Below, piece by piece: positions 27,822-55,522 of a stretch of DNA of 64,000 nt. The number at the start of each line of letters is the position of its first letter. The first letter of the stretch is position 1. Source of the stretch: a phage. The notes under the pieces were generated by a model that saw only the letters and a program-made list of their open reading frames with translations, was not told where the DNA came from and searched no databases. A program made the translations under genes and the position numbers. The stretch lies in NCBI GenBank assembly GCA_025830695.1, contig GCA_025830695.1_4111.1; one strand, 5' to 3'.

Positions 27822-28421
27822 ATGGGGTGTACTATGTTTTTAAAAAATACTTATGAATTAATTAAAATGCTTCAAAATATGAATTCCGGTGGCTTGTTTC
27901 CCTATTACTCTGAGGATGAAACTCATCGTTTAGTCCTTAAATTGGATGAAACTGGACGTATTATATCACTAAGAACAACAGTCCCCAGTGTAGAACCAGT
28001 AATTACCAAATCAACTCAAAATTCAGGAACTGCTGTTAAAACACCACAAACATACAACTCTAATTACCAACAACCACAAATGTACACGATTAGCACTCCA
28101 CCTATTAAACGAGTTGCTTGTATTGTGAATATAAAAGTATCTAAGGACTATCGCGACTTAATATCAGTTGAATGGTCAGAACTAACATCATCATTAGCAA
28201 CAAATGGATTTGTAGTAACAAATACAGGTCTAGCACAAAATGTGAAAGAAGGACAACAGATCATGAGTGCATTGTATCTTAGTAATGGTTGTGTTATCAT
28301 CAATGGTAAGTTGTATAGCGATGCCGACCCCACTGCATTCACTGAAGATTTGATTGGTGATAAAGAATACAGCATTCTAGAAATTATGAATTTGAAAAAG
28401 GTATATGAAAACCATGACTAG
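27822..28421 (+). CDS. Hypothetical protein (possible very divergent EE-x-FFQ-x-S family member)
   Basis: Track ORF. C-terminus DPTAFTEDLIGDKEYSILEIMNLKKVY only loosely resembles the family motif. Confidence 0.6.
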   Translation: MGCTMFLKNTYELIKMLQNMNSGGLFPYYSEDETHRLVLKLDETGRIISLRTTVPSVEPVITKSTQNSGTAVKTPQTYNSNYQQPQMYTISTPPIKRVACIVNIKVSKDYRDLISVEWSELTSSLATNGFVVTNTGLAQNVKEGQQIMSALYLSNGCVIINGKLYSDADPTAFTEDLIGDKEYSILEIMNLKKVYENHD

Positions 28422-28986
28422 ATTTCATCAGGATGATTTGCCATTTATCCAAGAACTAGAAGAACTGGTGATAAGTATTATGGATGAAATTAGTACTTGG
28501 GATATAACAGTTTTTCGAAATGTATATGATAAAGTTGTGAATTTTAAAAATGTTAATATTGAAGTAAAACATAATAATTTTTACTTAACAAAACAATTCA
28601 TTCTAACTCGACCAGGATCAAAGCCAGTTAAACGTAATTTATCATTCGGACACCTGATTGGTGCAGAAAATGTACATGATGAATGGGTTGATTCAATCTA
28701 TTCGTATACAAAAGAACTTATTCCTGATATTGAGAAAAAATATTATCTTAGTATCACATTAGATGAACAAGGAAAACTAAATGCGTATTCCATAAATTCA
28801 TCAGCACACGTTCCATTACATTCAACGTCAATTGGTGATAAACAATTACTAATCGATTCATCAACATGGCACAATAGGGAAAGTTTCTCCGCTGAAACTT
28901 TTCAGTACTCGGTATCTGAACCAAAGTCTCCATTTGATTTTGTGTTTGTTAATAACATCCTTTTACGTTTTGGTGTAGGAGTCTAA
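28405..28986 (+). CDS. Hypothetical protein, divergent EE-x-FFQ-x-S family member
   Basis: C-terminal RESFSAETFQYSVSEPKSPFDFVFVNNILL. Confidence 0.6.
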   Translation: MKTMTRFHQDDLPFIQELEELVISIMDEISTWDITVFRNVYDKVVNFKNVNIEVKHNNFYLTKQFILTRPGSKPVKRNLSFGHLIGAENVHDEWVDSIYSYTKELIPDIEKKYYLSITLDEQGKLNAYSINSSAHVPLHSTSIGDKQLLIDSSTWHNRESFSAETFQYSVSEPKSPFDFVFVNNILLRFGVGV

Positions 28987-28988
28987 TT

Positions 28989-29342
28989 ATGCTAATTTAT
29001 TTGAGTGTTCTTGTTATTTCATTACTGGTATCATTAGCAGTACTGAAAGCTGTTGCCATCGGTCGTAGTAAAATTGACAGTACTGAAACGAGTTCCGTTC
29101 TAGATTTGATTATGGATCATCCTAAAGTCTGTGGTATTATTGTATTGTTTGTTATTCTGATTAATACGTATATTGTCAGGGATCATTTATATAATATGTA
29201 TGATTGTAGTGTTAGATCTATATCACAAGGTGTTGAAACTGACTATAGCTGGTACTATGAGAAATGTAGATTTAAAAATCAGCATGGTATTTGGGTTGAT
29301 TTTGACAAACTACGTGGAACTCCTTCAGGAGAAGAAGAATAA
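28989..29342 (+). CDS. Membrane protein (2 TM)
   Basis: Track ORF. MLIYLSVLVISLLVSLAVL and VCGIIVLFVILINTYIV. Confidence 0.6.
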   Translation: MLIYLSVLVISLLVSLAVLKAVAIGRSKIDSTETSSVLDLIMDHPKVCGIIVLFVILINTYIVRDHLYNMYDCSVRSISQGVETDYSWYYEKCRFKNQHGIWVDFDKLRGTPSGEEE

Positions 29343-29344
29343 TT

Positions 29345-29836
29345 ATGTTTGAGTTCCCAGAAGAGTCATTTGACTTTATTGACCCTACTGATGATGGATA
29401 CCGACACATTAACATTTATAGTAAAGCTAGAACTAAGTTAGGTAGAGATCTATCTAACTTTTCTTCACATAGCTTCACACTTGAGCCATATGGTTGGTTC
29501 CCTTCAGTTGAAACATTTTACTTTTGGTTTTTAACTGGGCAAAAACATGATGACCTTAGAAAAGTATCTGGTGCAGCAGCAAAAGCAGCCGCTAACAAAT
29601 ATATGCATGATCGAATTGAAATGACGGATGATTGTATTTCTATTATTCAAGATGCTATTTGTGCTAAGATAATTCAAAATCCAGAGTTAGCCGAAAGATT
29701 AAGAAAAAGCAAGTTACCTTTTTACCATTACTATGTATATGGTGGTAAAGTTGTAGATGTATCCGACGAACATGATTGGTTTGTTAAAACATTCGAATAT
29801 ATAAGAACGGTGTTAAAGGAAAACTATAATGGGTAA
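29345..29836 (+). CDS. NADAR (YbiA/DUF1768)-like protein
   Basis: LSNFSSHSFTLEPYGWFPSVETFYFW...ICAKIIQNPELAERLRKS resembles the NADAR pattern (SNF....F...G..Y.S.EH.YQ...KF.QNP.L...LL.T). Confidence 0.4.
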   Translation: MFEFPEESFDFIDPTDDGYRHINIYSKARTKLGRDLSNFSSHSFTLEPYGWFPSVETFYFWFLTGQKHDDLRKVSGAAAKAAANKYMHDRIEMTDDCISIIQDAICAKIIQNPELAERLRKSKLPFYHYYVYGGKVVDVSDEHDWFVKTFEYIRTVLKENYNG

Positions 29837-30107
29837 ATGTTGGGTATGCTTCAAGGTGTTTGATGAAGAATATGAAATAATATTAGATGTATTGCCACAG
29901 CAGTACATGGTGTGTAATGAAAAATACAAATTGGACACCTACCCGACCCCCAAGTACATGGGAATATGTCCTTTGTGTGATGCAAATGGCGTGTCCAATA
30001 GTGAGATTTCATTCACTAACCAAGCCACAACTAACTGTGTATCTGGGTATATAAGAGAGAATCGAGAATATTTTATTAGGAGATTATATGAACGACAAAA
30101 TCTTTGA
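29829..30107 (+). CDS. Cys-rich small protein (possible zinc ribbon)
   Basis: CWVC...CPLCDANG pairs. Confidence 0.55.
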   Translation: MGKCWVCFKVFDEEYEIILDVLPQQYMVCNEKYKLDTYPTPKYMGICPLCDANGVSNSEISFTNQATTNCVSGYIRENREYFIRRLYERQNL

Positions 30108-30318
30108 TACATATGACATCGATACTTTACTAACACCATCTGATAACAGTACTGTTAAAATGGACATGTACTGGATTGTCGTTGATAAAAAAGTATTTAG
30201 ACATAAAATTACTAAAGTTTGGCAATGTAATAAAAACAAATCTATTGTTGAAGGATTGGCACAATGCATTCCTAATGCAGAGGTTTTATTTTTACCATAT
30301 GCATATACAAAGGAATAA
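30088..30318 (+). CDS. Hypothetical protein (76 aa)
   Basis: Track ORF with AGGAGA RBS. Confidence 0.6.
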   Translation: MNDKIFDTYDIDTLLTPSDNSTVKMDMYWIVVDKKVFRHKITKVWQCNKNKSIVEGLAQCIPNAEVLFLPYAYTKE

Positions 30319-30319
30319 A

Positions 30320-30481
30320 ATGAAAAAAACTTGGAAAATATTCACAATACCTGCTATAATGTTGTTATTGGCACTTTTCACACCGCAGAGTCATGTATTG
30401 TCTCTTAACATTGTGGAAATAATTCTTCTTGTAATTCACTGTGTCGTGTGTTATAATTATGTAAAAGGTGATAAAGAATGA
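30320..30481 (+). CDS. Small membrane protein (53 aa)
   Basis: Internal ATG of track ORF 30176..30481, preceded by AAGGA. The upstream part overlaps 30088..30318 out of frame. Confidence 0.5.
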   Translation: MKKTWKIFTIPAIMLLLALFTPQSHVLSLNIVEIILLVIHCVVCYNYVKGDKE

Positions 30482-30900
30482 AGTTCTTTAAAATTCGAAT
30501 TGGTGTAAGTTCTGGTTTATCTCATTGGGTATTTTATGATTTACCTGATAGTTATACTATTGATGATGTAATTGATTTATATACCGAAGATCAACAATGG
30601 GTGTTAGATACCGAAACACATAGAATTGATTGTCAAGAGATTAGTGAAGAAGATTACAAACACGGAAAGCAAGCCATGAAGTATTTTGAAACAAATATCA
30701 AAATGCTGACTGAAAACGTATTTCCAGTAAAAGAATGGGCAATTTTACTTGCTAATCCTAAAAAACCTGTTAGAATTGGTTATCCAAATTTTCATATGGT
30801 GTATCGTATGAATGATAAGCGAGAGCTTAACTATCAATACGATTACGATTCATCTAAGTTTGGAGTTCTTAAACAATTTTTAAAGGCTTATCCAGTATGA
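30478..30900 (+). CDS. Hypothetical protein
   Basis: Track ORF with ATGA overlap. Confidence 0.65.
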   Translation: MKFFKIRIGVSSGLSHWVFYDLPDSYTIDDVIDLYTEDQQWVLDTETHRIDCQEISEEDYKHGKQAMKYFETNIKMLTENVFPVKEWAILLANPKKPVRIGYPNFHMVYRMNDKRELNYQYDYDSSKFGVLKQFLKAYPV

Positions 30901-31232: not shown

Positions 31233-31423
31233 GTACTGAACTTTATGAAAAAAAGTACTGTACAAATTGCTCAACTGAGTATACAATACAAGGTATGTTG
31301 ATTTGTACAATATGTCAGTCAAAGAAATCAGCAACTTTCATCGTTGATGATAGATTTGGTGATTTGAAACAGTTTAAAGCAAACCGCAATCTTCGTATTT
31401 TTAGCAATCTAAATAAGGAATAA
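31229..31423 (+). CDS. Small Cys4 protein (possible zinc ribbon)
   Basis: CTNC...CTIC. ATGA overlap. Confidence 0.55.
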   Translation: MSTELYEKKYCTNCSTEYTIQGMLICTICQSKKSATFIVDDRFGDLKQFKANRNLRIFSNLNKE

Positions 31424-31426
31424 TAT

Positions 31427-31855
31427 ATGAATATCGAACAAACTATCCGTGAACATTCTTTCTTCGCTCCAGAAACTGGTCGTGTTATTGAGAGCGTCAA
31501 AATCGAAGAACTAATGGTCAATGTTAAATACAAAGAACCAAATGATGAGATTAGCAGTACTTTTTGTGCTCTACGTGCACCATTCCGTAATGAAAAAGCT
31601 AAGAAACCAGCATATGTTCTTGCCATTGCACTGGGTTGTGTTGTAAAACTTGCAGTTGATGAAAATCTTCTGAATATTAAAGTTGCACCAAGCAATGACG
31701 ATGAAAACATTGATTTGAACTTTGATGGTTCTCTTGATGAAGATGTATTTTTCCAACAGTCACTTGTTTACGACTTCCGTACAGTGACACATTCTCACAT
31801 CAAGTTCATTAATGAAATGGTTGAGATTGTTGCTGAATACGAAGAATCTCTCTAA
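31427..31855 (+). CDS. EE-x-FFQ-x-S family paralog
   Basis: C-terminal LDEDVFFQQSLVYDFRTVTHSHIKFINEMV. Confidence 0.7.
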   Translation: MNIEQTIREHSFFAPETGRVIESVKIEELMVNVKYKEPNDEISSTFCALRAPFRNEKAKKPAYVLAIALGCVVKLAVDENLLNIKVAPSNDDENIDLNFDGSLDEDVFFQQSLVYDFRTVTHSHIKFINEMVEIVAEYEESL

Positions 31856-31864
31856 GTAAATACA

Positions 31865-32620: not shown

Positions 32621-33016
32621 ATGAAGAACAATATTGGAACTTCAATAATTAAACCACTTTCTTATTACCTTGAAAAATTTAGAAGCACAAATGGTAATAA
32701 ATTTAATAATATATTTCAGTTCTCTCATAAAGAATATATTACAATTGATCATTTTTCAAAGAAACTAATGTATGTAAATGATAATAGTCATATTATTAAA
32801 TTATCATTCGATATTGAGTTAGATAAATTAACATTTACGGAATACATTAATCAAAAAACTTCTTTTTTATGTCAATACAATAGGAAAGTATATAGTAATA
32901 TTTCTATGTATCTAAATGATGAATATCACTTTCAACAATCTACAATAGAAGAAGTATTGTTCAGTACTGAAGAATTAAAAGAACTATATTACTGGTATAA
33001 TTATTTCACATCTTGA
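32621..33016 (+). CDS. EE-x-FFQ-x-S family paralog
   Basis: C-terminal LNDEYHFQQSTIEEVLFSTEELKELY. Confidence 0.7.
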   Translation: MKNNIGTSIIKPLSYYLEKFRSTNGNKFNNIFQFSHKEYITIDHFSKKLMYVNDNSHIIKLSFDIELDKLTFTEYINQKTSFLCQYNRKVYSNISMYLNDEYHFQQSTIEEVLFSTEELKELYYWYNYFTS

Positions 33017-33041
33017 CATTATTGTGGGTTTATCCTACAAT
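33013..33041 (+). promoter_or_regulatory. sigma70-like promoter
   Basis: TTGACA (33013-33018, overlapping the stop codon), 17 nt, TACAAT (33036-33041). Confidence 0.65.
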
Positions 33042-33071: not shown

Positions 33072-33482
33072 ATGAGTTTAGATTTACACAATGAACTAAA
33101 ATATTTTTTAGATTTGGACATATCAGAATTGAACCACCACGTCAATCATATGACTAGTACTGTATGGTGGTCTAATGATCAAGACGACCCAATTATCCAA
33201 CTAAGTGATGAATCGTCAATTATGCGATTTTATAAGATTAATTATAAAAAGAACATCAAGATCACATATGTACCATACAAAAACATACTACTAGTCGAAA
33301 CACTTAATCCAAGTTCTTTATTAAAAATCACAGATTTAGATACATTACAAACAAGTGAATCTTTATTCCAACGTTCATTAGTTGATGATCTTGGTGGTAT
33401 TACTTTTGAAGATATATTACAATTGAAGAATATGTATAGTGAATTGTTGGAGATTAAAAACACTTTAGTAATGGGGAATTGA
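33072..33482 (+). CDS. EE-x-FFQ-x-S family paralog
   Basis: C-terminal QTSESLFQRSLVDDLGGITFEDILQLKNMY. Confidence 0.7.
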   Translation: MSLDLHNELKYFLDLDISELNHHVNHMTSTVWWSNDQDDPIIQLSDESSIMRFYKINYKKNIKITYVPYKNILLVETLNPSSLLKITDLDTLQTSESLFQRSLVDDLGGITFEDILQLKNMYSELLEIKNTLVMGN

Positions 33483-33483
33483 T

Positions 33484-33888
33484 ATGGTAAGTTTACTAGA
33501 TATTGATAATACCAGTTTAGTGCTGGTGAAAAAAGGTTTAATTCCCAATTCTACAAAAATTGATTATGCTGTTATTGAAACAAATATTGGAAATATCTGG
33601 TACGACTCTGAAAGGGATATTGTGTTTAGCTGTGTAGACAGTGATCGATCTGAATGTTGTAGAGTCGGTCATGACGGACAATTTGTTTTTGAATTTCGTT
33701 ATTGGAAGGACGCAAAATTTCACCAAGAACTGGTTGCTTTGTCAAATGAACTATATACAGAAGAATCGTTCTTCATGGCTAGTACTATTAATGATTTTGG
33801 TTCAGTTACATTTGAGTACTATAAAAAGATATACGCACTATCCAGAGAAGTTATGAAAATTATCAGAACTGCTGAAGGTAAAGAATAA
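33484..33888 (+). CDS. EE-x-FFQ-x-S family paralog
   Basis: C-terminal YTEESFFMASTINDFGSVTFEYYKKIY. Confidence 0.7.
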   Translation: MVSLLDIDNTSLVLVKKGLIPNSTKIDYAVIETNIGNIWYDSERDIVFSCVDSDRSECCRVGHDGQFVFEFRYWKDAKFHQELVALSNELYTEESFFMASTINDFGSVTFEYYKKIYALSREVMKIIRTAEGKE

Positions 33889-33889
33889 C

Positions 33890-34267
33890 ATGACTACTAT
33901 ATATGATATTTTGGGTGTTCTGAGTAGAAATATAGATGATGATTTTGTTATTGTTCAAGATACTAGAAATACATTTCAACTACCAATAGGTTCACCAGAT
34001 AGGTTAATTTTTAATAGATACTCAAATGAACTAACTTACATCCATGATGGGATTGCAATTGTATCAGTTTCTATAAACGACTATACAATACGATATGTAT
34101 ATGACTTCAACGATTATTGTACAAGAATCCACAGTATTGATATTTCCGAAGAGGAACTATTCCAATTGTCATTGATTGAGAAAAATGTAATAGGAATTAC
34201 AGAAATTGGTATTATTAAAAAAGCATTAAACTATACAAATATAAGAATTAATGGTGGGTGCAGATGA
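33890..34267 (+). CDS. EE-x-FFQ-x-S family paralog
   Basis: C-terminal ISEEELFQLSLIEKNVIGITEIGIIKK. Confidence 0.7.
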   Translation: MTTIYDILGVLSRNIDDDFVIVQDTRNTFQLPIGSPDRLIFNRYSNELTYIHDGIAIVSVSINDYTIRYVYDFNDYCTRIHSIDISEEELFQLSLIEKNVIGITEIGIIKKALNYTNIRINGGCR

Positions 34268-34719
34268 ATGTTGACGAAATAAAAAATCATTTTGAAATTG
34301 CAATGTCATGTGAATTTGACACACAACGTGTTCATGACCCGAAAGAACATATACGCATTTGTTGTGAATTGTCAGATGATTGTAATATTTTTATTGGAAA
34401 AACCTATGACATGATCGATCTTTCATGTATAGATCCATTGGAAAGAAAAACAAAATATTTATATCTGTACAACACAACATCAGATACGATTGCAATACAA
34501 CTAATATCAACCACAACATCCCAAAGTTATTATAACATAACTGAGGTTAGTAGTTTAACGTTAACCGAAGAAGGATTCTTTCAACAATCGCTTATTCGTG
34601 AAATTGGTGTTAGTTATGATGAGTTAAATGTATTAGTAGATTGTTTCGAAAAATTGAGTACTTTTGTATTATCCCTTTTTAATATACAGTCGCAAAATCC
34701 AATGGTGGTGAAATGCTAA
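34258..34719 (+). CDS. EE-x-FFQ-x-S family paralog
   Basis: C-terminal LTEEGFFQQSLIREIGVSYDELNVLV. Confidence 0.7.
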   Translation: MQMNVDEIKNHFEIAMSCEFDTQRVHDPKEHIRICCELSDDCNIFIGKTYDMIDLSCIDPLERKTKYLYLYNTTSDTIAIQLISTTTSQSYYNITEVSSLTLTEEGFFQQSLIREIGVSYDELNVLVDCFEKLSTFVLSLFNIQSQNPMVVKC

Positions 34720-35153
34720 ATCCAAGTAAATTTCTCCACTTACTTTCGATAACATCAATACCGGATCTTACCAGTGAAACTAATGAATATCGTGAAGCTG
34801 GGGTGGTGTCTATGGAACTCGATACATTTGACCACAAATGCTATGTGACATATGACCCACCGCGTTATGGTAAAGAACATTCTTCTTTTATTTTTGTATT
34901 CGTATACACTGTATATGATAATACAACACTTGATGATGTTTGTATTGACACTTACGAAATTTGTGATAATATCATAACTGATGACAACAATAACTCATTT
35001 GATATGTCACTATATAACACAGAAGAATCGTTGTTTCAACTTAGTACTGTTATTGATGCACCATCATTAGAAGATATAAAACAATTTCAAGAACATCTTG
35101 ACGCAGTTCGTGAGATGTTCTATAATCATTATCCAGAAGTAGAGTTCAATTAA
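34713..35153 (+). CDS. EE-x-FFQ-x-S family paralog
   Basis: C-terminal NTEESLFQLSTVIDAPSLEDIKQFQ. Confidence 0.7.
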   Translation: MLNPSKFLHLLSITSIPDLTSETNEYREAGVVSMELDTFDHKCYVTYDPPRYGKEHSSFIFVFVYTVYDNTTLDDVCIDTYEICDNIITDDNNNSFDMSLYNTEESLFQLSTVIDAPSLEDIKQFQEHLDAVREMFYNHYPEVEFN

Positions 35154-35428: not shown

Positions 35429-35500
35429 GGAAATATATGTCTGAAAAGCCAAAAGAACCATTAGATCGTGATGATGATTTTTATGACGAACGATATGGAG

Positions 35501-35758
35501 ATGATGATGAGTGAACATAGTGCTGTGCTTAAAAAGATTTTAAAGGAACTTGATGGTGAGTTTAATGTCACAGAAGAAGACTATCAGCATTGGAAGAAAG
35601 GTTTTGAACAACTAACCGAGTATGATAAAGTGTTCAATATGATTGGCGTAATTAGCCAGTACTTACTCGGTGGAGGACGTGCAAGTGCTTCAATTCTGGC
35701 ATCTGCAATCATCTGTACATCACGATGGTGTGATGAAAAAAGTTTGGAAGATTTCTAA
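35501..35758 (+). CDS. Hypothetical protein (~85 aa)
   Basis: Track ORF 35468..35758. Start is uncertain (run of ATG codons at 35501-35509). Confidence 0.5.
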   Translation: MMMSEHSAVLKKILKELDGEFNVTEEDYQHWKKGFEQLTEYDKVFNMIGVISQYLLGGGRASASILASAIICTSRWCDEKSLEDF

Positions 35759-35810: not shown

Positions 35811-36671
35811 ATGAAACCTATCCGAGTACTTTCTCTTTTTAATGGAATGAGTGTGGGATATATGGCATTGCAAGATGCTGGTATCCCAGTTGAAAAATAT
35901 TATTCATCCGAAATTGATAAGTACGCAATAGCTGAATCTCAATCTAACTTTCCTGATATTATCCAATTGGGTGATGTAACTAAGTGGAGAGAATGGGATA
36001 TTGAGTGGGACAAAATAGATTTATTAATGGGTGGTTTCCCATGCCAAGCCTGGTCAGTTGCAGGTAAACAGGGTGGTTTAAATGATATACGTGGGCAGTT
36101 ATTTTTAGTAATGGTTGAAATTTTTGATCATATCAAAAGTCTCAATCCTAACTTGAAATTTCTGTTTGAAAATGTTAAAATGAAGGAAGATTTCAAAGAA
36201 TACATTAATAGTATTTTAGGAATCACGCCAGTACTGATAAACTCCCAGCATTATACGCCTCACTTCAGGCAGAGATATTACTGGTACAGTACTGATAAGC
36301 TTTTTATACCACCTGCATTATCCAATGCACCTAAACTTCAAGATATTATTGAAGATGGTTGGTACACTGACAGAACCGCTTCGTACTGTATAGATGCTAA
36401 CTATTTTAAAGGTGGTGATTGTAACCAGTACTTTAATAAATCCAGACGACAATTGGTGTTTCGTGACCCAGTGATCAGTCGTCAATATCTATTAGAGAAT
36501 GGCAAAAGAAATATTGACTATAGACACTTAAGTGTAGTAGAATGTTGTAAATTACAGGGTGTTCCTGAAGATTTCTTTAAAGTGTCTAGTAAGACACAAG
36601 CATACAAAATGCTTGGGAATGGATGGACTATGCCAGTTATATCACATTTACTAAGAGAGATATTCTTTTGA
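35811..36671 (+). CDS. DNA (cytosine-5)-methyltransferase, no adjacent endonuclease recognised
   Basis: Motif I LSLFNGMSVG, motif IV GGFPCQAWS, motif VI FENV, motif VIII-like RQRYYW, motif X GNGWTMPV. Confidence 0.85.
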   Translation: MKPIRVLSLFNGMSVGYMALQDAGIPVEKYYSSEIDKYAIAESQSNFPDIIQLGDVTKWREWDIEWDKIDLLMGGFPCQAWSVAGKQGGLNDIRGQLFLVMVEIFDHIKSLNPNLKFLFENVKMKEDFKEYINSILGITPVLINSQHYTPHFRQRYYWYSTDKLFIPPALSNAPKLQDIIEDGWYTDRTASYCIDANYFKGGDCNQYFNKSRRQLVFRDPVISRQYLLENGKRNIDYRHLSVVECCKLQGVPEDFFKVSSKTQAYKMLGNGWTMPVISHLLREIFF

Positions 36672-37195: not shown

Positions 37196-37711
37196 ATGCC
37201 AATTCCTTATGTTAAAATTATTAATAATATTCTCGATTCATGGGAAGATGTTATTACTGGTAAAAAGAAACCATCACCAGTACATGCTTTATCTGGGAAA
37301 CTTCAATTCAGAATGTCAAACCAAACTGAAACATTTAATAATCATGATATTTGCATTACATTAAAAACACCTGTTAGTATTGTAATTAAAAAAAATAAAG
37401 ATGATGAATTGACATTATCTATTGGTCGTGATAAAATCATTTTAAGTAATTTGTCTGAAGAAGAATTCTTTCAAAGAAGTACTATTATCGATATGAAAGA
37501 TTTCACATATGAATCATTGGTTGAACTCAATACACGTTTTAACGATATTCAGGAACGATTGCGACCAATTCTTCGTATCGAAGAAGAAGCCTGGATTGAA
37601 AGTATTAGGAAGATGCAAGAAATGTTGAAAGAAAATATTAACAATCTGGGTAAAGCTACAATGGAATTTGGTAAAACTTTTAAACTGAACTTTTCAAAGG
37701 ATCGTAAATGA
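37196..37711 (+). CDS. EE-x-FFQ-x-S family paralog
   Basis: LSEEEFFQRSTIIDMKDFTYESLVELN. ATG 37196 follows AGGTG; the track start 37169 lies inside the terminator. Confidence 0.7.
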   Translation: MPIPYVKIINNILDSWEDVITGKKKPSPVHALSGKLQFRMSNQTETFNNHDICITLKTPVSIVIKKNKDDELTLSIGRDKIILSNLSEEEFFQRSTIIDMKDFTYESLVELNTRFNDIQERLRPILRIEEEAWIESIRKMQEMLKENINNLGKATMEFGKTFKLNFSKDRK

Positions 37712-38163
37712 AAATTGATAATTTGATTCATGTTTTAGGATCTTTACATAAAATATTATCACATCTACATGAGATAAAGAAACTGGGATTTAACATCTCA
37801 AATTCAATTGAAACTACATTTAAATATCAATCAATTACTGGTGATGGTTATTACATAATCGAATATACTTATGAAACCGATCCAGACTTCTATCCTCTTA
37901 CGTTGAGAATTTATCCAACAAATCCGAGAGGAATTCACGACATATCATCAATTTCACTTGATCCAGATGGTGAAACGAGTATTGAATACAATAATGATTC
38001 AAAACCAGAATTTTACATTGATGATATTAAAATGATGTTCAACGATGAATATGTTTTCCAACAAAGTACTGTGCATGATGTTGGAAGTACTAATGGACAA
38101 TTTTGGAATACATGTTATTATCATATGATTGAAATTTGTAAATTACTAAAAGGTGATGAATAA
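37708..38163 (+). CDS. EE-x-FFQ-x-S family paralog
   Basis: C-terminal FNDEYVFQQSTVHDVGSTNGQFW. ATGA overlap. Confidence 0.7.
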   Translation: MKIDNLIHVLGSLHKILSHLHEIKKLGFNISNSIETTFKYQSITGDGYYIIEYTYETDPDFYPLTLRIYPTNPRGIHDISSISLDPDGETSIEYNNDSKPEFYIDDIKMMFNDEYVFQQSTVHDVGSTNGQFWNTCYYHMIEICKLLKGDE

Positions 38164-43806: not shown

Positions 43807-44025
43807 ATGAAATTTATTGATTTTGATATTTCTAAGGCCAAAGAATTATTTGTAAGAAATGAAGTTTATGATATCATGTTACATAACGGCACTGTACAAG
43901 AAGATGTTGTGTTGTTTTCGTTTGATGGTGAAAATCTCGAAACTATATATAAATTCAGCAACTTAGATGGTGACTTTTGGGAAACCAGTGCTGTTAAAAT
44001 GTATAGAATTAAAAAGGAGCATTAA
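43807..44025 (+). CDS. Hypothetical protein (72 aa)
   Basis: Track ORF 43789..44025. ATG 43807 follows AGGAGGA. Confidence 0.6.
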   Translation: MKFIDFDISKAKELFVRNEVYDIMLHNGTVQEDVVLFSFDGENLETIYKFSNLDGDFWETSAVKMYRIKKEH

Positions 44026-44026
44026 C

Positions 44027-44515
44027 ATGCCAATTCGTGGTGTACCAGAACCATTAATGGAAGTTATTAAGCATGTTCGCATTGGAGATCGAGAAGTTAA
44101 TCTTCGCCGTAATAACATTTATTACTTTAAAACTTCAGAAATGAGTTCTGTACAGATTGTCATTGGTACATCTATTAAGATTACTCGTGTACTTGATGGT
44201 AGTACTGACTTCGTTGAATATAATGTACTTACTAATAAAGTAACGCATATATATAAATGGAGTGGGTATAAAACTATTAAGTATGAATTTGACTTAGCTA
44301 GAACTGAAGAAGAACGATTTATGCTGAGTACTATCAATCCAGCAAACTATCCCGATCTTGATGCATTTTTGCTAATTTTAAAATTGTATAATGAAGCAAA
44401 TCAGAAAGCTAAAGAGTATGATAGAATCATGTATGAACGCCGAAAAGAACGTGCACAAAAAAGTTATGATCTGTATGATAGCCCATACGTGAAATATAGT
44501 AAGGGGTCGAAATGA
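44027..44515 (+). CDS. EE-x-FFQ-x-S family paralog
   Basis: ARTEEERFMLSTINPANYPDLDAFLLILK. ATG 44027 follows AAGGAG. Confidence 0.65.
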   Translation: MPIRGVPEPLMEVIKHVRIGDREVNLRRNNIYYFKTSEMSSVQIVIGTSIKITRVLDGSTDFVEYNVLTNKVTHIYKWSGYKTIKYEFDLARTEEERFMLSTINPANYPDLDAFLLILKLYNEANQKAKEYDRIMYERRKERAQKSYDLYDSPYVKYSKGSK

Positions 44516-45270: not shown

Positions 45271-45344
45271 CCTTTTCCATTGTCCATTGCAATGCTTTCT
45301 TTACAGAAGAATAAATGAAACACTTAATTGAACTGGATACATAA
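45271..45344 (+). pseudogene. Decayed duplicate of the 3' end of ORF 45648..45863
   Basis: SIVHCNAFFTEE*MKHLIELDT* vs intact SIVHDSAFFTKEEMQHLIVLDT*. About 80% nt identity by eye; in-frame TAA at 45312-45314. Confidence 0.6.
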
Positions 45345-45345
45345 A

Positions 45346-45522
45346 ATGACACATGAAGAATGGATAGAGTCACTAAAATATAAACATGATCATTTTGGAT
45401 TTGGTATACGCCAAGGCCATTATGATGTTTTGAACGATAAAAAAACGTTCGAATCATTGGTTTTGGACGAAGATTCCAACCACTGGTTCATCTACGAGCT
45501 TGCTATTAGAGATAAAAAATAG
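45346..45522 (+). CDS. MTHEEWM mini-protein family, copy 2 (58 aa)
   Basis: MTHEEWIESLKYKHDHFGFGIRQGHYDVLNDKKTFESLVLDEDSNHWFIYELAIRDKK (internal ATG of track ORF 45328). Confidence 0.6.
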   Translation: MTHEEWIESLKYKHDHFGFGIRQGHYDVLNDKKTFESLVLDEDSNHWFIYELAIRDKK

Positions 45523-45527: not shown

Positions 45528-45863
<336 letters not shown>

Positions 45864-45864
45864 A

Positions 45865-46047
45865 ATGACACACGAAGAATGGATGTCCAAACAGCATAAA
45901 GAACATGACTGCTTTGGGAATGGCATTCGTCAGGTACATTATGATATATTAAGAGATGAAAATCTTTTCAGGTCATATGTTTTGGATACCAGAAAACCCT
46001 GGTTTATATGCGAACTGGCATTTAGAAAGTCAAATAATCAAAACTAA
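45865..46047 (+). CDS. MTHEEWM mini-protein family, copy 3 (60 aa)
   Basis: MTHEEWMSKQHKEHDCFGNGIRQVHYDILRDENLFRSYVLDTRKPWFICELAFRK (internal ATG of track ORF 45847). Confidence 0.6.
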   Translation: MTHEEWMSKQHKEHDCFGNGIRQVHYDILRDENLFRSYVLDTRKPWFICELAFRKSNNQN

Positions 46048-47344: not shown

Positions 47345-47754
<410 letters not shown>

Positions 47755-47758
<4 letters not shown>

Positions 47759-48217: not shown

Positions 48218-49027
<810 letters not shown>

Positions 49028-49926: not shown

Positions 49927-50694
<768 letters not shown>

Positions 50695-51047: not shown

Positions 51048-51473
51048 ATGAAATACAACATTGTTAAAATGGTGAACTATATATTAAAAAACAACGCATG
51101 GTCACTGCATGATGTACAATTAGAAGATATTGGTGAAGTTAGAGTATTTTGCTATGATCCAGATTTGAATCAAACCACAGATTTGAGTAAATGTTTTAAT
51201 ATTTTTCTTGGTTATGAATTCAATAATCATTTTTATTCATTTGATGTGTATTTTGAAAAAGTTATATTCAGAAGTTATGAATGTGATAATGAAGATTATG
51301 ATTATGATGATGAATCAATTGAATTGAATGTTAACGATATTGATACTGAAGAAAAATTCTTCCAGTACTGCCTCCTTAACGACACATTAGGATTAACATT
51401 TGAGGACATTAAAGCTATACTTAAAGTTCAAAAGTTGATTCCAGAAGAGGTTCTAAATCCATTAAATGACTAG
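51048..51473 (+). CDS. EE-x-FFQ-x-S family paralog
   Basis: C-terminal DIDTEEKFFQYCLLNDTLGLTFEDIKAILK. Confidence 0.7.
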   Translation: MKYNIVKMVNYILKNNAWSLHDVQLEDIGEVRVFCYDPDLNQTTDLSKCFNIFLGYEFNNHFYSFDVYFEKVIFRSYECDNEDYDYDDESIELNVNDIDTEEKFFQYCLLNDTLGLTFEDIKAILKVQKLIPEEVLNPLND

Positions 51474-51831
51474 TCTAATAGTACGTATAATGCAAGATGT
51501 TTGTAATAACCTTTATACAGGCAATTTTGACGATCCGAACATAAAAATATTATGTTATGATGGTTTTACAATGGTACATCCATCCTATTCAAATAATATC
51601 TACGTAGCATATACAGGTGAAAATCTATTATATCAATTTGATATATATAGTACAATGACAAAGATAATTTTGGATGCCTCTAAACCAGCAATCTTTATTG
51701 CTTCTCATGATTACCATTACACTGAAGAATCACTATTTCAGTACTCAATGATTAATGACATTGGTGGGTTGACATTGGATGAGGTTAATGCTATACTAGC
51801 TGTCTCACGTTTGGTTAAAACCCACAATTAG
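51466..51831 (+). CDS. EE-x-FFQ-x-S family paralog
   Basis: C-terminal HYTEESLFQYSMINDIGGLTLDEVNAIL. Confidence 0.7.
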   Translation: MTSLIVRIMQDVCNNLYTGNFDDPNIKILCYDGFTMVHPSYSNNIYVAYTGENLLYQFDIYSTMTKIILDASKPAIFIASHDYHYTEESLFQYSMINDIGGLTLDEVNAILAVSRLVKTHN

Positions 51832-51840
51832 GAGATTCAT

Positions 51841-52032
51841 ATGTTCTGGAATTTATTATGCTTGTTTGGTCGTACATTGGTTCTTGCTATTATTCATACA
51901 CCTGGTATTCGTAATTATGTTTCTTATGAATTTAAGAAAAATTATCACAACAATACTGAAGTTCGTACAACTAAGATGTGCAAAGACTTCAAGGTAGATG
52001 TTCCACCATTCAAGAAGTACGAGGATGAATAA
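51841..52032 (+). CDS. Small hypothetical protein (63 aa), hydrophobic N-terminus
   Basis: Track ORF with AGGAGA RBS. Confidence 0.55.
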   Translation: MFWNLLCLFGRTLVLAIIHTPGIRNYVSYEFKKNYHNNTEVRTTKMCKDFKVDVPPFKKYEDE

Positions 52033-52316
52033 TGGAATTCATTGTTGCACCTGATGAACTTAAAACATTCACGTTCAGAGATAATAACAATTATCCTTAT
52101 ACAAATCATTCATTGAATTCATTACATGTTATTGCAATCATTGCATCTGAATACAGGGATAATCCATGTATTGATTTTAAAACCACTGATGGCGAATATA
52201 CATGGGTGATCCCAAAAGATAAATATAGTTATCAAGGGGCAGTAGAAATTCGTGACTCGATTCTAAAACAAATCGAAGATGGAAATACTCATCCTAAACT
52301 AAACACTCAGTACTGA
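52032..52316 (+). CDS. Hypothetical protein (94 aa)
   Basis: Track ORF with TAATG overlap. Confidence 0.6.
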   Translation: MEFIVAPDELKTFTFRDNNNYPYTNHSLNSLHVIAIIASEYRDNPCIDFKTTDGEYTWVIPKDKYSYQGAVEIRDSILKQIEDGNTHPKLNTQY

Positions 52317-52329
52317 AATCGTTTAACCC

Positions 52330-52384
52330 GATAGCTTCTAGTCAGTACTGATTCCTCCTTATGTATAGAAGCTATCACTTTTTT
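52330..52384 (+). terminator. Rho-independent terminator with TCAGTACTGA in the loop
   Basis: gatagcttcta (52330-52340) pairs with tagaagctatc (52366-52376), followed by ac-tttttt. Confidence 0.7.
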
Positions 52385-52472
52385 ACGTATAATGATATTA
52401 CCCTCAAATTCATTATATTCGTTACCCTCTAACAGTATCTTTTTATTCCTCTTGGATGCTGTAATTTAGAAG

Positions 52473-52502
52473 TTGACTTTTTAACTTCTACTGTGTTATA
52501 CT
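52473..52502 (+). promoter_or_regulatory. sigma70-like promoter with extended -10
   Basis: TTGACT (52473-52478), 18 nt, TGtTATACT (52494-52502). Confidence 0.6.
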
Positions 52503-52503
52503 T

Positions 52504-52532
52504 AAGGCTGATTCGATGAATCGGCCTTTTTT
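52504..52532 (+). terminator. Strong hairpin plus T-run abutting the promoter (promoter/stem-loop cassette)
   Basis: aaggctgattc-gat-gaatcggcctt followed by tttt. Confidence 0.6.
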
Positions 52533-52550
52533 CTTATATAGGTGAATGCA

Positions 52551-52970
52551 ATGAGTTATTTGTTTACTTTAATTGATAAGTATGTTGACATTGTATACCG
52601 TCAAGTTTGTAGTGATACGTTTGAAACAAAAAACCCAATTAGAGATGGCATTTTTGATGTTGTCGTTGGATCATTTTTGAATGGATACACCGAGACATTA
52701 TACAACAGTAATAATATTTTTATTTCAGTTCAATCCAGACATACATCAGACTATGCTGTTAGCATTGATATTTGGGAAAATAATATAGAAATAGATATAA
52801 CGGAACATACTAACATTCATGTTGATGATACATTTAATCAATTAACTGAAGAAATGTACTTGCAGTTGAATTTTGTACATGATCTTACAAATATCAGTTA
52901 TGATACATTAAGGAAAATATGTTTTCTTAGTGGGGCGATCCGTAGTAATATGAGTAAGGATGGGAAGTGA
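52551..52970 (+). CDS. EE-x-FFQ-x-S family paralog
   Basis: NQLTEEMYLQLNFVHDLTNISYDTLRKI. ATG 52551 follows AGGTGA. Confidence 0.65.
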   Translation: MSYLFTLIDKYVDIVYRQVCSDTFETKNPIRDGIFDVVVGSFLNGYTETLYNSNNIFISVQSRHTSDYAVSIDIWENNIEIDITEHTNIHVDDTFNQLTEEMYLQLNFVHDLTNISYDTLRKICFLSGAIRSNMSKDGK

Positions 52971-52971
52971 A

Positions 52972-53388
52972 ATGTTAAAAATTCCACCTAAGTCGTTAAC
53001 ACATCTTATTGAATGTGGTGTAATATTTTCCGAAGGTGATACCTCATCATACACATTGGTCGATGAACCTTATAATTTTTCATACCAATCTTATAAAAAT
53101 AATTCTAAAATTTCTTGTAGAGATGCTGAAAACATATTAATAGATGTTTCGTTACATAATGTTCCGAAATTTTACATTGATATCTTTGGTGATTCTTTGA
53201 CAATTCGAACATATGATTATTTTATTAATAACGACCTCTTGAGTCTTCCAATTGAACATGATACTATAGATTCAGAGATGTTCTTTCAACTATCAACAGT
53301 TTACGATTTACAGGGTTTAACTGTTGAGCAGTTGAATGGAATATTTGAGATTTCACGAAACATACGAAGCAGGAATAAAAATGTCTAA
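52972..53388 (+). CDS. EE-x-FFQ-x-S family paralog
   Basis: TIDSEMFFQLSTVYDLQGLTVEQLNGIF. The first ATG after the previous stop. Confidence 0.7.
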   Translation: MLKIPPKSLTHLIECGVIFSEGDTSSYTLVDEPYNFSYQSYKNNSKISCRDAENILIDVSLHNVPKFYIDIFGDSLTIRTYDYFINNDLLSLPIEHDTIDSEMFFQLSTVYDLQGLTVEQLNGIFEISRNIRSRNKNV

Positions 53389-53797
53389 TATTTTAAATGA
53401 AAAAACAGTTGATGTTGTTATTGGTGTTCTTAACACCGCAACTTCATTTCAGAAGAAACACAGTACTGTATACTTCGGTGACGATTGTTGGCTGAACTAT
53501 ACATCTGATAATTCGTTTATAATTCGTGTTGAGAAGGGTGATATTGGATTAACGATACATGCTTCCCACACTAAAACTGATAAGAAAATCACTGTTATTG
53601 CAAACAAGCCAAGTGTCTCAGATTTCTGGGATAGAATTGATGATTGCGACCATTTCATGTCAACATTCTATAAAACAGAAGAAGAACATTTCATGGATAG
53701 TACGGTCAAAGAATTAGCTATTCCATTTAAACTTATGAAAGCAGTAAGAGATTTTATTTTAAAATACAAAAAAATAGGAGTTACTAATGCAATTTAA
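53381..53797 (+). CDS. EE-x-FFQ-x-S family paralog
   Basis: YKTEEEHFMDSTVKELAIPFKLMKAVRDF. ATG 53381 follows AGGAA. Confidence 0.65.
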   Translation: MSNILNEKTVDVVIGVLNTATSFQKKHSTVYFGDDCWLNYTSDNSFIIRVEKGDIGLTIHASHTKTDKKITVIANKPSVSDFWDRIDDCDHFMSTFYKTEEEHFMDSTVKELAIPFKLMKAVRDFILKYKKIGVTNAI

Positions 53798-54233
53798 TGG
53801 TAAAGTTTCCAAAGTAGGTTTGGTTTTTGAAAACTGTGAATTTGTTGATATTGATGTAAAGAATGTTTTATGGATGCATATTGCTGATGAGAAGACTCTT
53901 TGTAGCCGTTTTTCAAACGGACTGACAATTAGTACTGTTATCGGTGAGTTCGGTATTGCATTACGCAGCAATACACCATCGGATTTCATGGACAACTCTA
54001 CACTGTTAGACCGTTTAAAAATGCGTGACGTTACACATGTTTATCTATATGATACTAACGGTGTTGAACAGCGTTATGTAGTTGAATGGGCTAATTATAA
54101 CCTTAGTGATCAATATTCAGTAAACCAGCGTGTTCAACTCACCCCTGGTGGTAATATTGTGTTTGTTAGTTCAACTGGTAAATTAATCAGTGTAGATGAT
54201 AAAAACATTGACCTATTCACCGCATATAACTAA
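53787..54233 (+). CDS. Hypothetical protein (148 aa)
   Basis: Track ORF with AGGAG upstream. Confidence 0.65.
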   Translation: MQFNGKVSKVGLVFENCEFVDIDVKNVLWMHIADEKTLCSRFSNGLTISTVIGEFGIALRSNTPSDFMDNSTLLDRLKMRDVTHVYLYDTNGVEQRYVVEWANYNLSDQYSVNQRVQLTPGGNIVFVSSTGKLISVDDKNIDLFTAYN

Positions 54234-54244
54234 TACGAGCTTCC

Positions 54245-54664
54245 ATGAAAACAATCCAAATTCATTTCAAAGACACTTGGACAGAAGTAAGTACTGGTAA
54301 TATTCAGGATATTTTATATAGTACTGAAACTATTCATGTTTATGATGAAGAGACTGCTTCCGAGCAGTTAAAAGTTTTGCATCGTAGTGTTGGTGTGCAC
54401 ACTGAATATGGCATTAAACATACTCGTGAATTACTTAATACTAATCACATTGAAACCCGTAAAGCAAACTTATCAAAAGAAGAAATGTTCGATTTCATCC
54501 TGAACCATAAAGTTCATATTGAGCCTGATGGGTCTATATGGGAGAACACTGCTGGACAAAAAGTGCTGAAAAAATATCATGTTTCAATTGATAATGTAAA
54601 AATGTCAGGGTATGATTTGGAAGATGCAATTAATGAATATGTATCTAGGCAGAGGGCAAATTGA
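54245..54664 (+). CDS. Hypothetical protein (139 aa)
   Basis: Track ORF. Confidence 0.65.
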   Translation: MKTIQIHFKDTWTEVSTGNIQDILYSTETIHVYDEETASEQLKVLHRSVGVHTEYGIKHTRELLNTNHIETRKANLSKEEMFDFILNHKVHIEPDGSIWENTAGQKVLKKYHVSIDNVKMSGYDLEDAINEYVSRQRAN

Positions 54665-55035
54665 TGAGCTTGATAACATTTACAATTATTTGTTGCATTA
54701 CTATTGTACTTTGTCGCCTGATTCATGTATACTCATATCATAAAGCGTTGCGAATCGAACAAGAGATTTACAACGAAAACCGAGAACCAGAACCAGTCAA
54801 GAAGCCACCATCACCTTATGGGTTGAAACGTGAGATGCATTCTCAAAGTAAAAAGTGGGGTTATGCAATTACTAAAAATGGCTACATCTATACTGCAAGT
54901 AATGGTTATTTTCAAATTCACCACGAATTAGAAGTGGCAGTTCAAATTTTGTGGGAGATGGAGGACATTGGTGGTTATGAGCGTACTAAGTTTGAATTCA
55001 TATCAAATGATCCAGGAACTTCACGAGAAACATGA
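54664..55035 (+). CDS. Membrane-anchored hypothetical protein
   Basis: Track ORF 54661..55035. N-terminal LITFTIICCITIVLCRLI. Confidence 0.6.
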   Translation: MSLITFTIICCITIVLCRLIHVYSYHKALRIEQEIYNENREPEPVKKPPSPYGLKREMHSQSKKWGYAITKNGYIYTASNGYFQIHHELEVAVQILWEMEDIGGYERTKFEFISNDPGTSRET

Positions 55036-55041
55036 TATAAT
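55013..55041 (+). promoter_or_regulatory. Extended -10 promoter (weak -35)
   Basis: TGaTATAAT (55033-55041). Confidence 0.35.
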
Positions 55042-55069
55042 TGTTGATGTGGAGAAGAAGGAAGTCGTT

Positions 55070-55180
55070 ATGAAAAAGCAAGCATATAGAATTTTAGAAG
55101 ACTTCCATCTAAAAGCATTTATAATGAAGTTCTGTACAGATGAACATCTTACCGGACGAGTAATACGTAAGGAGTTGTAA
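55070..55180 (+). CDS. Very small hypothetical protein (36 aa)
   Basis: Internal ATG of track ORF 54968..55180, preceded by GAAGGAAG. The upstream part overlaps 54664..55035. Confidence 0.35.
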   Translation: MKKQAYRILEDFHLKAFIMKFCTDEHLTGRVIRKEL

Positions 55181-55522
55181 ATGAACTTAAGTTCAACAAT
55201 TCAGTACTTGAGCAGTAACTTCGAGAAAATTATTTCTCGCGGTGGGATGATTGTACACCCAGAAACAGAGGAAATGTACATCATTGGATTTGATAAAAAT
55301 TCTTATGATCAAGTACTTGTAATTTCCAAGTTAGAAAGTTATAATGAAGTTGTTCAGTTTTGCTGTACCGAATTTGGTATCTATATTAAAGACGCTGAAA
55401 CTAATACAATTTCGCATTATTTTTACCACACACTGATGGGTACTAAAGACTTCGGCTTGAAGTTCGATGATTTAGTACAATGTCACTATATGTTTAAAAC
55501 CTTCCCAGCTAGTGGGCATTAA
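55181..55522 (+). CDS. Hypothetical protein, divergent EE-x-FFQ-x-S family member
   Basis: C-terminal ISHYFYHTLMGTKDFGLKFDDLVQCHYMF parallels FFQ.S...D.GG.TFEDI. AAGGAG RBS. Confidence 0.6.
   Translation: MNLSSTIQYLSSNFEKIISRGGMIVHPETEEMYIIGFDKNSYDQVLVISKLESYNEVVQFCCTEFGIYIKDAETNTISHYFYHTLMGTKDFGLKFDDLVQCHYMFKTFPASGH

Follow-up and report, generated by a model that had tools for sequence, protein, structure and literature searches.

The window analyzed here is a 64,000-nucleotide stretch of phage DNA (GenBank assembly GCA_025830695.1, contig GCA_025830695.1_4111.1) that carries an array of small, diverged paralogous genes sharing one C-terminal module. It is part of the genome of an Asteriusvirus jumbo coliphage. 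Its 30- to 50-kb segment matches the Asteriusvirus coliphages BAU.Micro_ELP-22 (ELP-22), E9.1, and PBECO4 with 98 to 99% identity over 95 to 100% of its length, and coliphage 121Q with 97% identity over 89%; the genomes of these four phages measure 348 to 373 kb. Throughout the deposited records of these relatives, the genes of the family are annotated as "hypothetical protein." Two further phages served for comparison, namely, UE-S1, which is closer (approximately 91% nucleotide identity), and RaK2, which belongs to another genus (the orthologue of gene 33484 is approximately 30% identical). Genes are named by their start position in the window. For coordinates outside it, L007 denotes UE-S1, L008 denotes RaK2, L009 denotes ELP-22, and L003, L004, and L005 denote metagenomic contigs of related jumbo phage.

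Members and organization of the array

The first-pass annotation of the window had proposed at least 20 paralogs, with two to three degenerate members in addition. The paralog array is genuine, and its count is lower than the 20 to 23 listed at that time: it comprises 17 secure members of 117 to 171 amino acids (aa), one probable member (48218), and up to three candidates that share the motif region only (44512, 43366, and 55181). Pairwise phmmer comparisons connect a core set of open reading frames (ORFs), including 51048 with 51466 (E = 7e-11) and 33072 with 51466 (E = 4e-6). An iterated hidden Markov model (HMM) search of the window ORFs of 50 aa or more, 243 in number, converges on the 17 members. 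When each of these was left out of the model in turn, all 17 were recovered among the 243 ORFs (E = 1.3e-12 to 2.7e-3), with alignments that mostly reach well past the motif. A larger HMM, built from 135 diverged sequences, finds the 17 at E values of 1e-19 to 1e-9. Because this model leaves out only 48218 and holds the 17 among its own sequences, the noncircular support for them comes from the leave-one-out test. In addition, the window contains 12 matches to the strict eight-residue pattern [ED][ED]x[FYLHV]F[QM]x[SC], all on the plus strand and between 31.7 and 53.7 kb, against 0.04 to 0.08 matches expected from nucleotide or residue shuffles. The core similarity among the members exceeds chance by a wide margin.

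The next match of the 135-sequence HMM after the 17 is 48218 (E = 0.0076, full-length alignment), which is also the best or near-best nonmember match in nearly all leave-one-out runs (E = 1.5e-4 to 0.1). It is followed by 44512 (E = 0.042), and 55181 (E = 0.29) and 43366 (E = 2.5) are inseparable from background by this model. Profile alignment with hhalign places the motif-like segments of 43366, 44512, and 55181 correctly, with a P value of about 0.01 each. For 55181, earlier described as a degenerate member, the motif itself is lost and the turn and second helix of the module still align (P = 0.009). The other two suggested degenerate members, 27822 and 28405, show no family signal by pairwise phmmer or by the 135-sequence HMM, and we do not retain them. 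The genome of ELP-22 holds three further, more divergent copies (172 to 229 aa), located 4 to 40 kb past the end of the window.

The members and the promoters associated with them are listed below. Entries given as "family member" form the secure set; LOO, leave-one-out HMM; large HMM, the 135-sequence HMM.

31427-31855, plus strand: family member, 142 aa, motif DEDVFFQQSLVYD; LOO E = 4.8e-6; large HMM E = 1.1e-15; RaK2 orthologue, 136 bits
32621-33016, plus strand: family member, 131 aa, motif NDEYHFQQSTIE; LOO E = 1.5e-8; large HMM E = 4.2e-12
33013-33041, plus strand: sigma70-like promoter TTGACA-17 nt-TACAAT, a consensus match only (11/12), in the gap ahead of the five-gene run 33072-35153
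33072-33482, plus strand: family member, 136 aa, motif TSESLFQRSLVDDLGGITFEDI; LOO E = 9.1e-11; RaK2 orthologue, 46 bits
33484-33888, plus strand: family member, 134 aa, the copy modeled by AlphaFold2; LOO E = 6.8e-10; RaK2 orthologue, 48 bits
33890-34267, plus strand: family member, 125 aa, weakest of the secure set; LOO E = 2.7e-3; large HMM E = 9.7e-10
34264-34719, plus strand: family member, 151 aa when counted from ATG 34264 (the start annotated in ELP-22; GTG 34258 is also possible); LOO E = 3.8e-9
34713-35153, plus strand: family member, 146 aa, isoelectric point (pI) 4.1; LOO E = 5.4e-12
37196-37711, plus strand: family member, 171 aa, including a basic extension of approximately 45 aa at the C terminus, pI 7.8; LOO E = 3.2e-9
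37708-38163, plus strand: family member, 151 aa; LOO E = 1.9e-6; RaK2 orthologue, 24 bits
38543-38986, plus strand: family member, 147 aa; LOO E = 2e-7; RaK2 orthologue, 30 bits
43366-43758, plus strand: possible degenerate member, not established (EEDEFQKNT); HMM E = 2.5; hhalign, motif only, P = 0.011
44027-44515, plus strand: family member, 162 aa, motif TEEERFMLSTIN, extended at the C terminus by a basic segment; LOO E = 3.8e-4; large HMM E = 1.5e-14; RaK2 orthologue, 59 bits
44512-44916, plus strand: possible member (SVEEEFQYNLL); HMM E = 0.042, full-length alignment; hhalign P = 0.01
47346-47373, plus strand: sigma70-like promoter TTGACT-16 nt-TATAAT (11/12), immediately upstream of 47405
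47405-47758, plus strand: family member, 117 aa, motif TEEEYFQMSTVQE; LOO E = 8.8e-8
48218-48595, plus strand: probable member, 125 aa, ADEEDEFQKRTV; E = 0.0076 against the HMM that excludes it, full-length alignment; lacking in UE-S1
50638-50665, plus strand: perfect sigma70 consensus TTGACA-16 nt-TATAAT (12/12), upstream of tRNA-Thr and the run 51048-53797
51048-51473, plus strand: family member, 141 aa, younger duplicate pair with 51466; pairwise E = 7e-11; within-genome score of 36 bits, above the 18 bits to RaK2
51466-51831, plus strand: family member, 121 aa, motif TEESLFQYSMINDIGGLTLDEV; LOO E = 1.3e-12
52551-52970, plus strand: family member, 139 aa; LOO E = 4e-6; also found by the N-terminal-only HMM (E = 4e-4)
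52972-53388, plus strand: family member, 138 aa; LOO E = 6.9e-9
53381-53797, plus strand: family member, 138 aa, motif TEEEHFMDSTVKE; LOO E = 6e-4; RaK2 orthologue, 51 bits
55181-55522, plus strand: doubtful degenerate member, motif lost, DFG-LKFDDL kept; HMM E = 0.29; hhalign P = 0.009, covering turn and second helix

As described earlier, the genes stand in tandem runs with overlapping or abutting start and stop codons, and six tRNA genes and a gene for a C5 DNA methyltransferase, identified from deposited annotations alone, lie among them. The motif had been placed close to the C terminus, and in most members it does lie 34 to 50 residues away from it; the distance is 84 residues in 37196 and is also greater in 44027, both of which are C-terminally extended. 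The proteins had also been called acidic overall. This applies to 13 of 18, with a pI below 5, and not to the other five (pI 6.4 to 9.2). The median pI of the family is 4.7, compared to 5.5 for neighboring genes (P = 0.02), and 8% of the family is basic.

The conserved C-terminal module and its predicted fold

Across an alignment of 136 diverged sequences, mean column identity is 8%, and a single block is almost invariant. It belongs to a C-terminal module of approximately 45 aa with the consensus [ST]-E-E-x-[FY]-F-Q-x-S-[TL]-[VI]-x-D-[FL]-G-x-[LI]-[ST]-x-E-[DE], and 88 to 99% of the sequences retain its F, E, E, S, and Q. Residue counts per block position (of 136) are as follows.

Position 1: T 92, S 27
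Position 2: E 129
Position 3: E 128
Position 4: variable, E 59
Position 5: F 61, Y 42
Position 6: F 135
Position 7: Q 120, M 16
Position 8: variable
Position 9: S 125
Position 10: T 81, L 47
Position 11: V 69, I 44, L 22
Position 12: variable
Position 13: D 103

The block is followed by [FL]-G-x-[LI]-[TS]-[YLF]-E-[DE]-[LI]-K-x-[IL] and then by an amphipathic heptad pattern. Since the codons at conserved positions vary among the window paralogs (Ser, TCN 7 and AGY 6; Phe, TTT 9 and TTC 7; Gln, CAA 10 and CAG 5), the module is conserved as protein rather than as DNA. The remainder of the proteins had been described as barely alignable, which is borne out by an HMM of the N-terminal parts only: with close relatives removed, it ranks just 6 of the 18 window members first (E = 4e-4 to 0.1). 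A shared ancestry of all N-terminal parts is plausible on this evidence.

An AlphaFold2 model of 33484 based on the 136 sequences reached a predicted local distance difference test (pLDDT) score of 76 and a predicted template modeling (pTM) score of 0.65. It shows six antiparallel strands (residues 30 to 86), a helix that contains the motif (residues 93 to 102), a turn, and a second helix (residues 110 to 131). With 18 sequences, only the C-terminal helices were modeled, and the N-terminal part was unusable (pLDDT 53). In the predicted structure, both helices of the module appear to open with capping motifs, in which a hydrophobic N' residue is followed by a Ser/Thr N-cap, an acidic N3 residue, and a hydrophobic N4 residue, as in L-T-E-E-E-F and L-T-x-E-D-L. 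Such capping would account for part of the motif, and not for the near-invariant F, Q, S, and D or the paired E. In 33484, the paired E, the Q, the S, and the D are E93, E94, Q98, S100, and D104. By-eye readings of the motif as a tobacco etch virus (TEV)-like protease site (E-x-x-Y-x-Q|S), an EF-hand, a helix-hairpin-helix, or an FFAT-like motif were dropped, as the segment is predicted to be helical and the spacing does not fit.

The family had been reported as unrecognized, and database searches agree. A Pfam scan of 10 members, followed by one of the full set of 136 aligned sequences, gave no family with matches to more than one sequence; NCBIfam gave no match for 18 members. A profile search of PDB sequences returned best E values of 0.53 and 0.64, neither of which is significant, the latter to a variant of the colicin immunity protein Im9. 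Foldseek found nothing below E = 0.2 in the PDB, and the recognizable matches of a BFVD fold search were family members in RaK2 (template modeling score, 0.71), GAP32, and CBB. In PHROGs, each window member falls into its own small group of unknown function (e.g., 24941, 24510, 17453, 30548, and 21500) with weak cross-matches, and no single annotated group covers the paralogs, which are spread over more than 12 such groups.

The only above-threshold Pfam match among the 136 sequences belongs to P0017, a metagenomic protein of 115 aa in which a RecQ-1-like helix-turn-helix (HTH; 46.6 bits) precedes the module. At first, P0017 seemed to prove that the family is modular. It was found only once, on a contig of 1 kb; its N-terminal 63% is 75 to 88% identical to bacterial RecQ C termini, and the protein is most probably an assembly chimera with its junction at the GAA-rich "EEE." Separately, the metagenomic protein P0139 (233 aa), from another phage, consists of a complete family member preceded, in the same reading frame, by a homologue of the nonfamily window ORF 35468-35758 (49% identity over 67 aa). 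It is possibly a gene-fusion link between the two gene types, or it could be an assembly or frameshift artifact.

The geometry of the module bears on the idea that these are small helix-turn-helix nucleic acid-binding regulators, or nucleic acid mimics, that reprogram transcription. A Gly at the turn followed by [LI]-[ST] is in line with the former, and the low median pI recalls DNA mimics. Nonetheless, the second helix is acidic (T-x-E-[DE]), the opposite of a DNA recognition helix, and no Pfam HTH family matches members apart from the chimeric P0017. For mimicry, the five neutral or basic window members are a difficulty, and neither Pfam nor fold searches gave a match to Ocr or ArdA, nor fold searches a likeness to other mimics. 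We regard both variants as improbable.

A different role for the module is suggested by where the conservation lies. In an adaptor family, the C-terminal helix-turn-helix would dock all copies on one shared partner, such as host RNA polymerase, a protease, a chaperone, or a phage protein, or would drive homo- or hetero-oligomerization, and the N-terminal parts would bring differing cargoes or targets, in the manner of the F-box/PRANC or BTB expansions of large eukaryotic viruses. Nearly all statistical signal resides in the 45-aa module; taken by themselves, the N-terminal parts can hardly be detected. The polar residues E, E, Q, S, and D are kept at 76 to 95%, beyond what simple core packing or helix capping calls for, and the Ser is kept across both of its codon families. 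Moreover, extensions or extra N-terminal domains surround an unchanged module in 37196, 44027, P0128, and P0139. Against this, AlphaFold packs the module into one compact domain, the sole apparent domain swap is the probably chimeric P0017, and the motif could be the plain folding nucleus of the domain. The adaptor explanation stays viable because conservation concentrates in polar residues of the module; we nevertheless hold it to be unlikely. Its most far-reaching form is, in our estimate, slightly more doubtful still: a portable docking signal that gathers approximately 20 "heads" on one hub early in infection, forming a combinatorial adaptor system whose hub could be RNA polymerase, a protease or chaperone, the degradosome, a phage platform, or a mixed paralog oligomer.

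Distribution, age, and genomic context of the family

An exhaustive search of 1.84 billion cluster representatives returned 139 clusters (50% identity) at E values of ≤1e-3, nearly all of them 105 to 190 aa long and with the motif nearly always 33 to 50 residues from the C terminus. A tblastn search with the 45-aa module consensus matched 72 of 50,697 phage records, and among the matches listed (60 of the 72), the complete records are all jumbo phages of 310 to 386 kb. The phages that carry the module infect Escherichia, Klebsiella, Salmonella, Erwinia, Yersinia, Pectobacterium, Serratia, and Cronobacter, with one Xanthomonas phage. As far as these searches reach, the module is confined to RaK2/121Q-like jumbo phages. 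An exact back-translated TEEEYFQQST pattern had no match in IMG/VR. Arrays hold 18 copies in the homologous stretch of phAPEC6, 17 in UE-S1, and 12 in the syntenic 40 kb of RaK2. Diverged metagenomic contigs, two unrelated ones among them, also carry arrays, one with 11 copies in 20 kb, whose nearest named relative is Erwinia phage Hallingskeid, and others with 6 to 7.

Eight window paralogs have their best partner in RaK2, with scores of 24 to 136 bits compared to 13 to 23 bits for any paralog in the same genome, and the eight partners keep the same gene order along the RaK2 genome. The expansion is therefore ancient, and the earlier description of a lineage-specific expansion, in the sense of a recent event, finds no support; only the pair 51048/51466 looks like younger duplicates. 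The notion of a fast-diverging remainder fared no better. Relative to UE-S1, median identity is 91% both for the family and for 35 neighboring genes, at ratios of nonsynonymous to synonymous divergence (omega) of 0.19 and 0.15, respectively. Pooled over members, omega equals 0.25 in the N-terminal part, 0.11 in the 13-residue motif, and 0.34 in the C-terminal helix, and every copy tested is under purifying selection (omega, about 0.1 to 0.5). Judged by these sequence comparisons, the family is old, collinear, and individually maintained rather than a fast-evolving recent expansion.

Synonymous divergence (dS) from UE-S1 varies from approximately 0 to 1.4 between adjacent genes, and a few genes are strongly diverged from their UE-S1 counterparts (34264, 49% identical; 34713, 66%; 43807 [43807-44025], 52%) between flanking genes that are 90 to 100% identical. 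This unevenness points to mosaic recombination or allelic replacement inside the array. Such mosaicism, the homing endonucleases that relatives hold in the array region, and a copy number that ranges from 12 to 18 across phages could be taken to mean that these are functionless or selfish duplicated ORFs persisting in a plastic, tRNA-rich region. Purifying selection in every copy tested, the order kept between genera whose orthologues are about 30% identical, and conservation of the motif at the protein level across 136 clusters effectively refute this.

The surrounding genes add no functional context, as Pfam scans of approximately 40 nonfamily ORFs between 27.8 and 55.5 kb gave no match. The C5 DNA methyltransferase (35811-36671) has 286 aa, compared to 626 aa annotated in UE-S1 (L007 14807-16687); the alignment between the two spans 209 residues only, so the UE-S1 gene has an extra domain or insertion. 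Two ORFs on the plus strand, 45328-45522 and 45847-46047 (64 and 66 aa), are mutual paralogs that both start with M-x-W-I-H-K-M-T-H-E-E-W. They flank ORF 45648-45863 near tRNA-Gly (45550-45622) and form a second, smaller duplicated family. The tRNA-Met (48865-48943), located 5 nt from tRNA-Asn, measures 79 nt with its anticodon at position 37, which exceeds the standard class I length. Inside the RaK2 array, ORF188 (L008 20401-20814) is annotated as similar to archaeal-type peptidyl-tRNA hydrolase, and its counterparts in K64-1 and Muenster are named peptidyl-tRNA hydrolase; the corresponding place in the window has no gene. Outside the window, ELP-22 carries two further arrays (L009, 346.7 to 351.9 kb and 333.8 to 346.6 kb): a tandem run of about 24 tiny ORFs of 59 to 69 aa each and, on the minus strand, an array of "regulator of chromosome condensation" paralogs, about 11 in number, that probably correspond to the phAPEC6 "DNA condensation" virion proteins.

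Expression class, putative function, and likeness to known systems

The array had been described as served by sigma70-type promoters, and this is upheld by a scan of the whole window. The plus strand has 29 sites that match the consensus at 11 or all 12 positions, nine of them perfect, and the minus strand has one, with approximately 3.7 expected per strand. A looser scan stays at expectation (114 versus 113), so the enrichment is carried by near-perfect sites only. Several of these lie in gaps ahead of family runs, as with the three promoters listed above. Host-type promoters plausibly mark early genes; the phage encodes a sigma factor of its own. Sites of the T4-type late promoter TATAAATA show no enrichment (3 versus approximately 7 expected per strand) and give no temporal contrast.

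The 62 proteins of the phAPEC6 virion proteome, the one such proteome consulted, include gp077, gp078c, and then gp149c, and none from gp079c to gp148c, the range that holds all members of the family. In the RaK2 record, five nearby genes are labeled virion structural and none of the 12 family members is, an absence read from the annotation of the record only. These data speak to the idea of virion-internal, ejected proteins whose module is a capsid-targeting or scaffold-binding signal or a prohead protease site, modeled on the T4 internal proteins and the coat-binding helix-turn-helix of the P22 scaffolding protein. A short conserved module with a variable remainder does recall the T4 internal-protein loci, an inner body and numerous head proteins are present in these phages, and E-x-x-[YF]-F-Q-x-S superficially resembles a protease site. 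Besides the missing virion proteins, the promoters are host type and not late type, and the module is predicted as folded helices, not as an exposed linker. This reading is already disfavored and very improbable.

We instead favor, at a probability of about 0.42, a battery of proteins that are made early, stay in the cytoplasm, and bind or inhibit host proteins. The family would consist of small, soluble, mostly acidic proteins encoded in a part of the genome that host RNA polymerase would transcribe early from sigma70 promoters, each copy combining a variable N-terminal beta meander with a constant C-terminal helix-turn-helix. The copies would act as stoichiometric binders or inhibitors of host proteins in host takeover, anti-defense, or immunity-like roles; the variable sheet would give every copy its own target, and the conserved module would provide a common scaffold or common contact. 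Early expression, the cytoplasmic location, and all binding by the members are inferred. The sole direct hint that links the family to anti-defense comes from three metagenomic contigs, where a gene for an Acb2/Tad1 sponge lies directly downstream of a family member and overlaps its 3' end.

L003, 4354-4578: Acb2/Tad1-hairpin gene, overlapping the 3' end of a member
L004, 10497-10721: Acb2/Tad1-hairpin gene, overlapping the 3' end of a member
L005, 1944-2168: Acb2/Tad1-hairpin gene, overlapping the 3' end of a member

Acb2/Tad1 proteins are cyclic-nucleotide sponges that counteract CBASS and Thoeris. The match of L003 4354-4575 to PF24729 (Acb2_Tad1_hairpin) scores 60.6 bits, with a cutoff of 27; the family members themselves do not match PF24729, and no Acb2/Tad1 was found among the window ORFs scanned against Pfam.

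Several observations weigh against such a battery. The timing would follow from consensus promoters alone, several of them inside genes, and no transcriptome for any Asteriusvirus was found in the literature searched. Relative to UE-S1, the orthologues evolve no faster than their neighbors and bear no sign of positive selection, unlike many arms-race genes. The N-terminal HMM did not demonstrate homology across all copies, and one paralog only has an acceptable model, the earlier 18-sequence model having failed in its N-terminal part. Finally, a ligand or partner common to all copies could be what the invariant polar residues mark instead.

No description of the family was found in the papers searched. 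The RaK2 paper reports that approximately 10% of gene products are paralogues without describing the family itself, and the CBB paper counts 22 paralogous ORFs. Approximately 83% of genes in RaK2/121Q-like phages are unannotated, and these phages are being put forward as therapeutic agents against E. coli, Klebsiella, Salmonella, Cronobacter, and Erwinia. One family now accounts for about 20 "hypothetical proteins" in each genome and for 139 or more database clusters, and it gains a precise signature, a predicted fold, a defined age, and a set of invariant residues, namely, the E-E pair, F, Q, and S. As the copies are old, collinear, and individually conserved, it can be argued that each has its own nonredundant job. 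If the members are inhibitors of host factors or defenses, approximately twenty new inhibitor-target pairs would come to light at once; if they share a hub, this would be a new organizing principle of phage takeover and a bacterial-virus counterpart of the F-box/PRANC/BTB adaptor expansions.

Among known phage systems, the host takeover module of SPO1 and the early "hyperplastic" regions of T4 and T5 consist of small genes of unknown function with strong host-type early promoters, tRNAs, and homing endonucleases. The array block shares the small genes, sigma70 promoters, and tRNAs, and in relatives the homing endonucleases. In those modules, however, the genes are mostly unrelated to each other, whereas about one-third of the block described here is one paralogous family. 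The T4 internal proteins (IPI, IPII, IPIII, and the variable ip loci) are likewise small, with a short conserved module and a variable remainder, and IPI* is an anti-defense protein. Those proteins are packaged, and their signal, a capsid-targeting sequence of 10 residues at the N terminus, is cut by the prohead protease; in the present family the module is C-terminal and predicted to be folded and helical, and no member is in the phAPEC6 virion proteome.

The DNase immunity proteins of colicins and pyocins (Im9 type) are also small acidic inhibitors, and polymorphic-toxin loci are known to contain diverged immunity paralogs arrayed in tandem. Helices I and II of Im9 (S-D-Y-T-E-A-E-F-L-Q-L-V...S-E-E-E-L) resemble T-E-E-x-F-F-Q...T-x-E-D-L of the module. 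The likeness is suggestive, and kinship was not supported: the Im9 match in the PDB profile search (E = 0.64) involves one variant chain only and is not significant, and Colicin_Pyocin is not among the Pfam families listed for members (25 of 52). In addition, the immunity proteins are all-alpha four-helix proteins of approximately 85 aa, in contrast to the six-strand sheet and two helices predicted in the 134-aa model. Polo-box (beta6-alpha) and p32/MAM33-type folds score within the generic beta-meander range, no better than porins or Rhs shells, and at 4 to 11% sequence identity they show no sign of common ancestry with the family.

Multigene families of giant viruses are already known, and the present family is a new one with an unusual conservation profile. 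Bacillus phage G carries an expansion of approximately 35 zinc-ribbon copies (Iyer et al. 2021, PMC7824862). Like this expansion, the MGF360/505/110 families of African swine fever virus, and the ankyrin-PRANC proteins of poxviruses, the family consists of tandem, diverged, small nonstructural paralogs that cluster in an accessory region of a very large viral genome and are presumed to interact with the host. It has no sequence or fold relation to any of them, and it differs in being ancient and collinear across genera rather than recently expanded, with its conservation in one 45-aa C-terminal helix-turn-helix.

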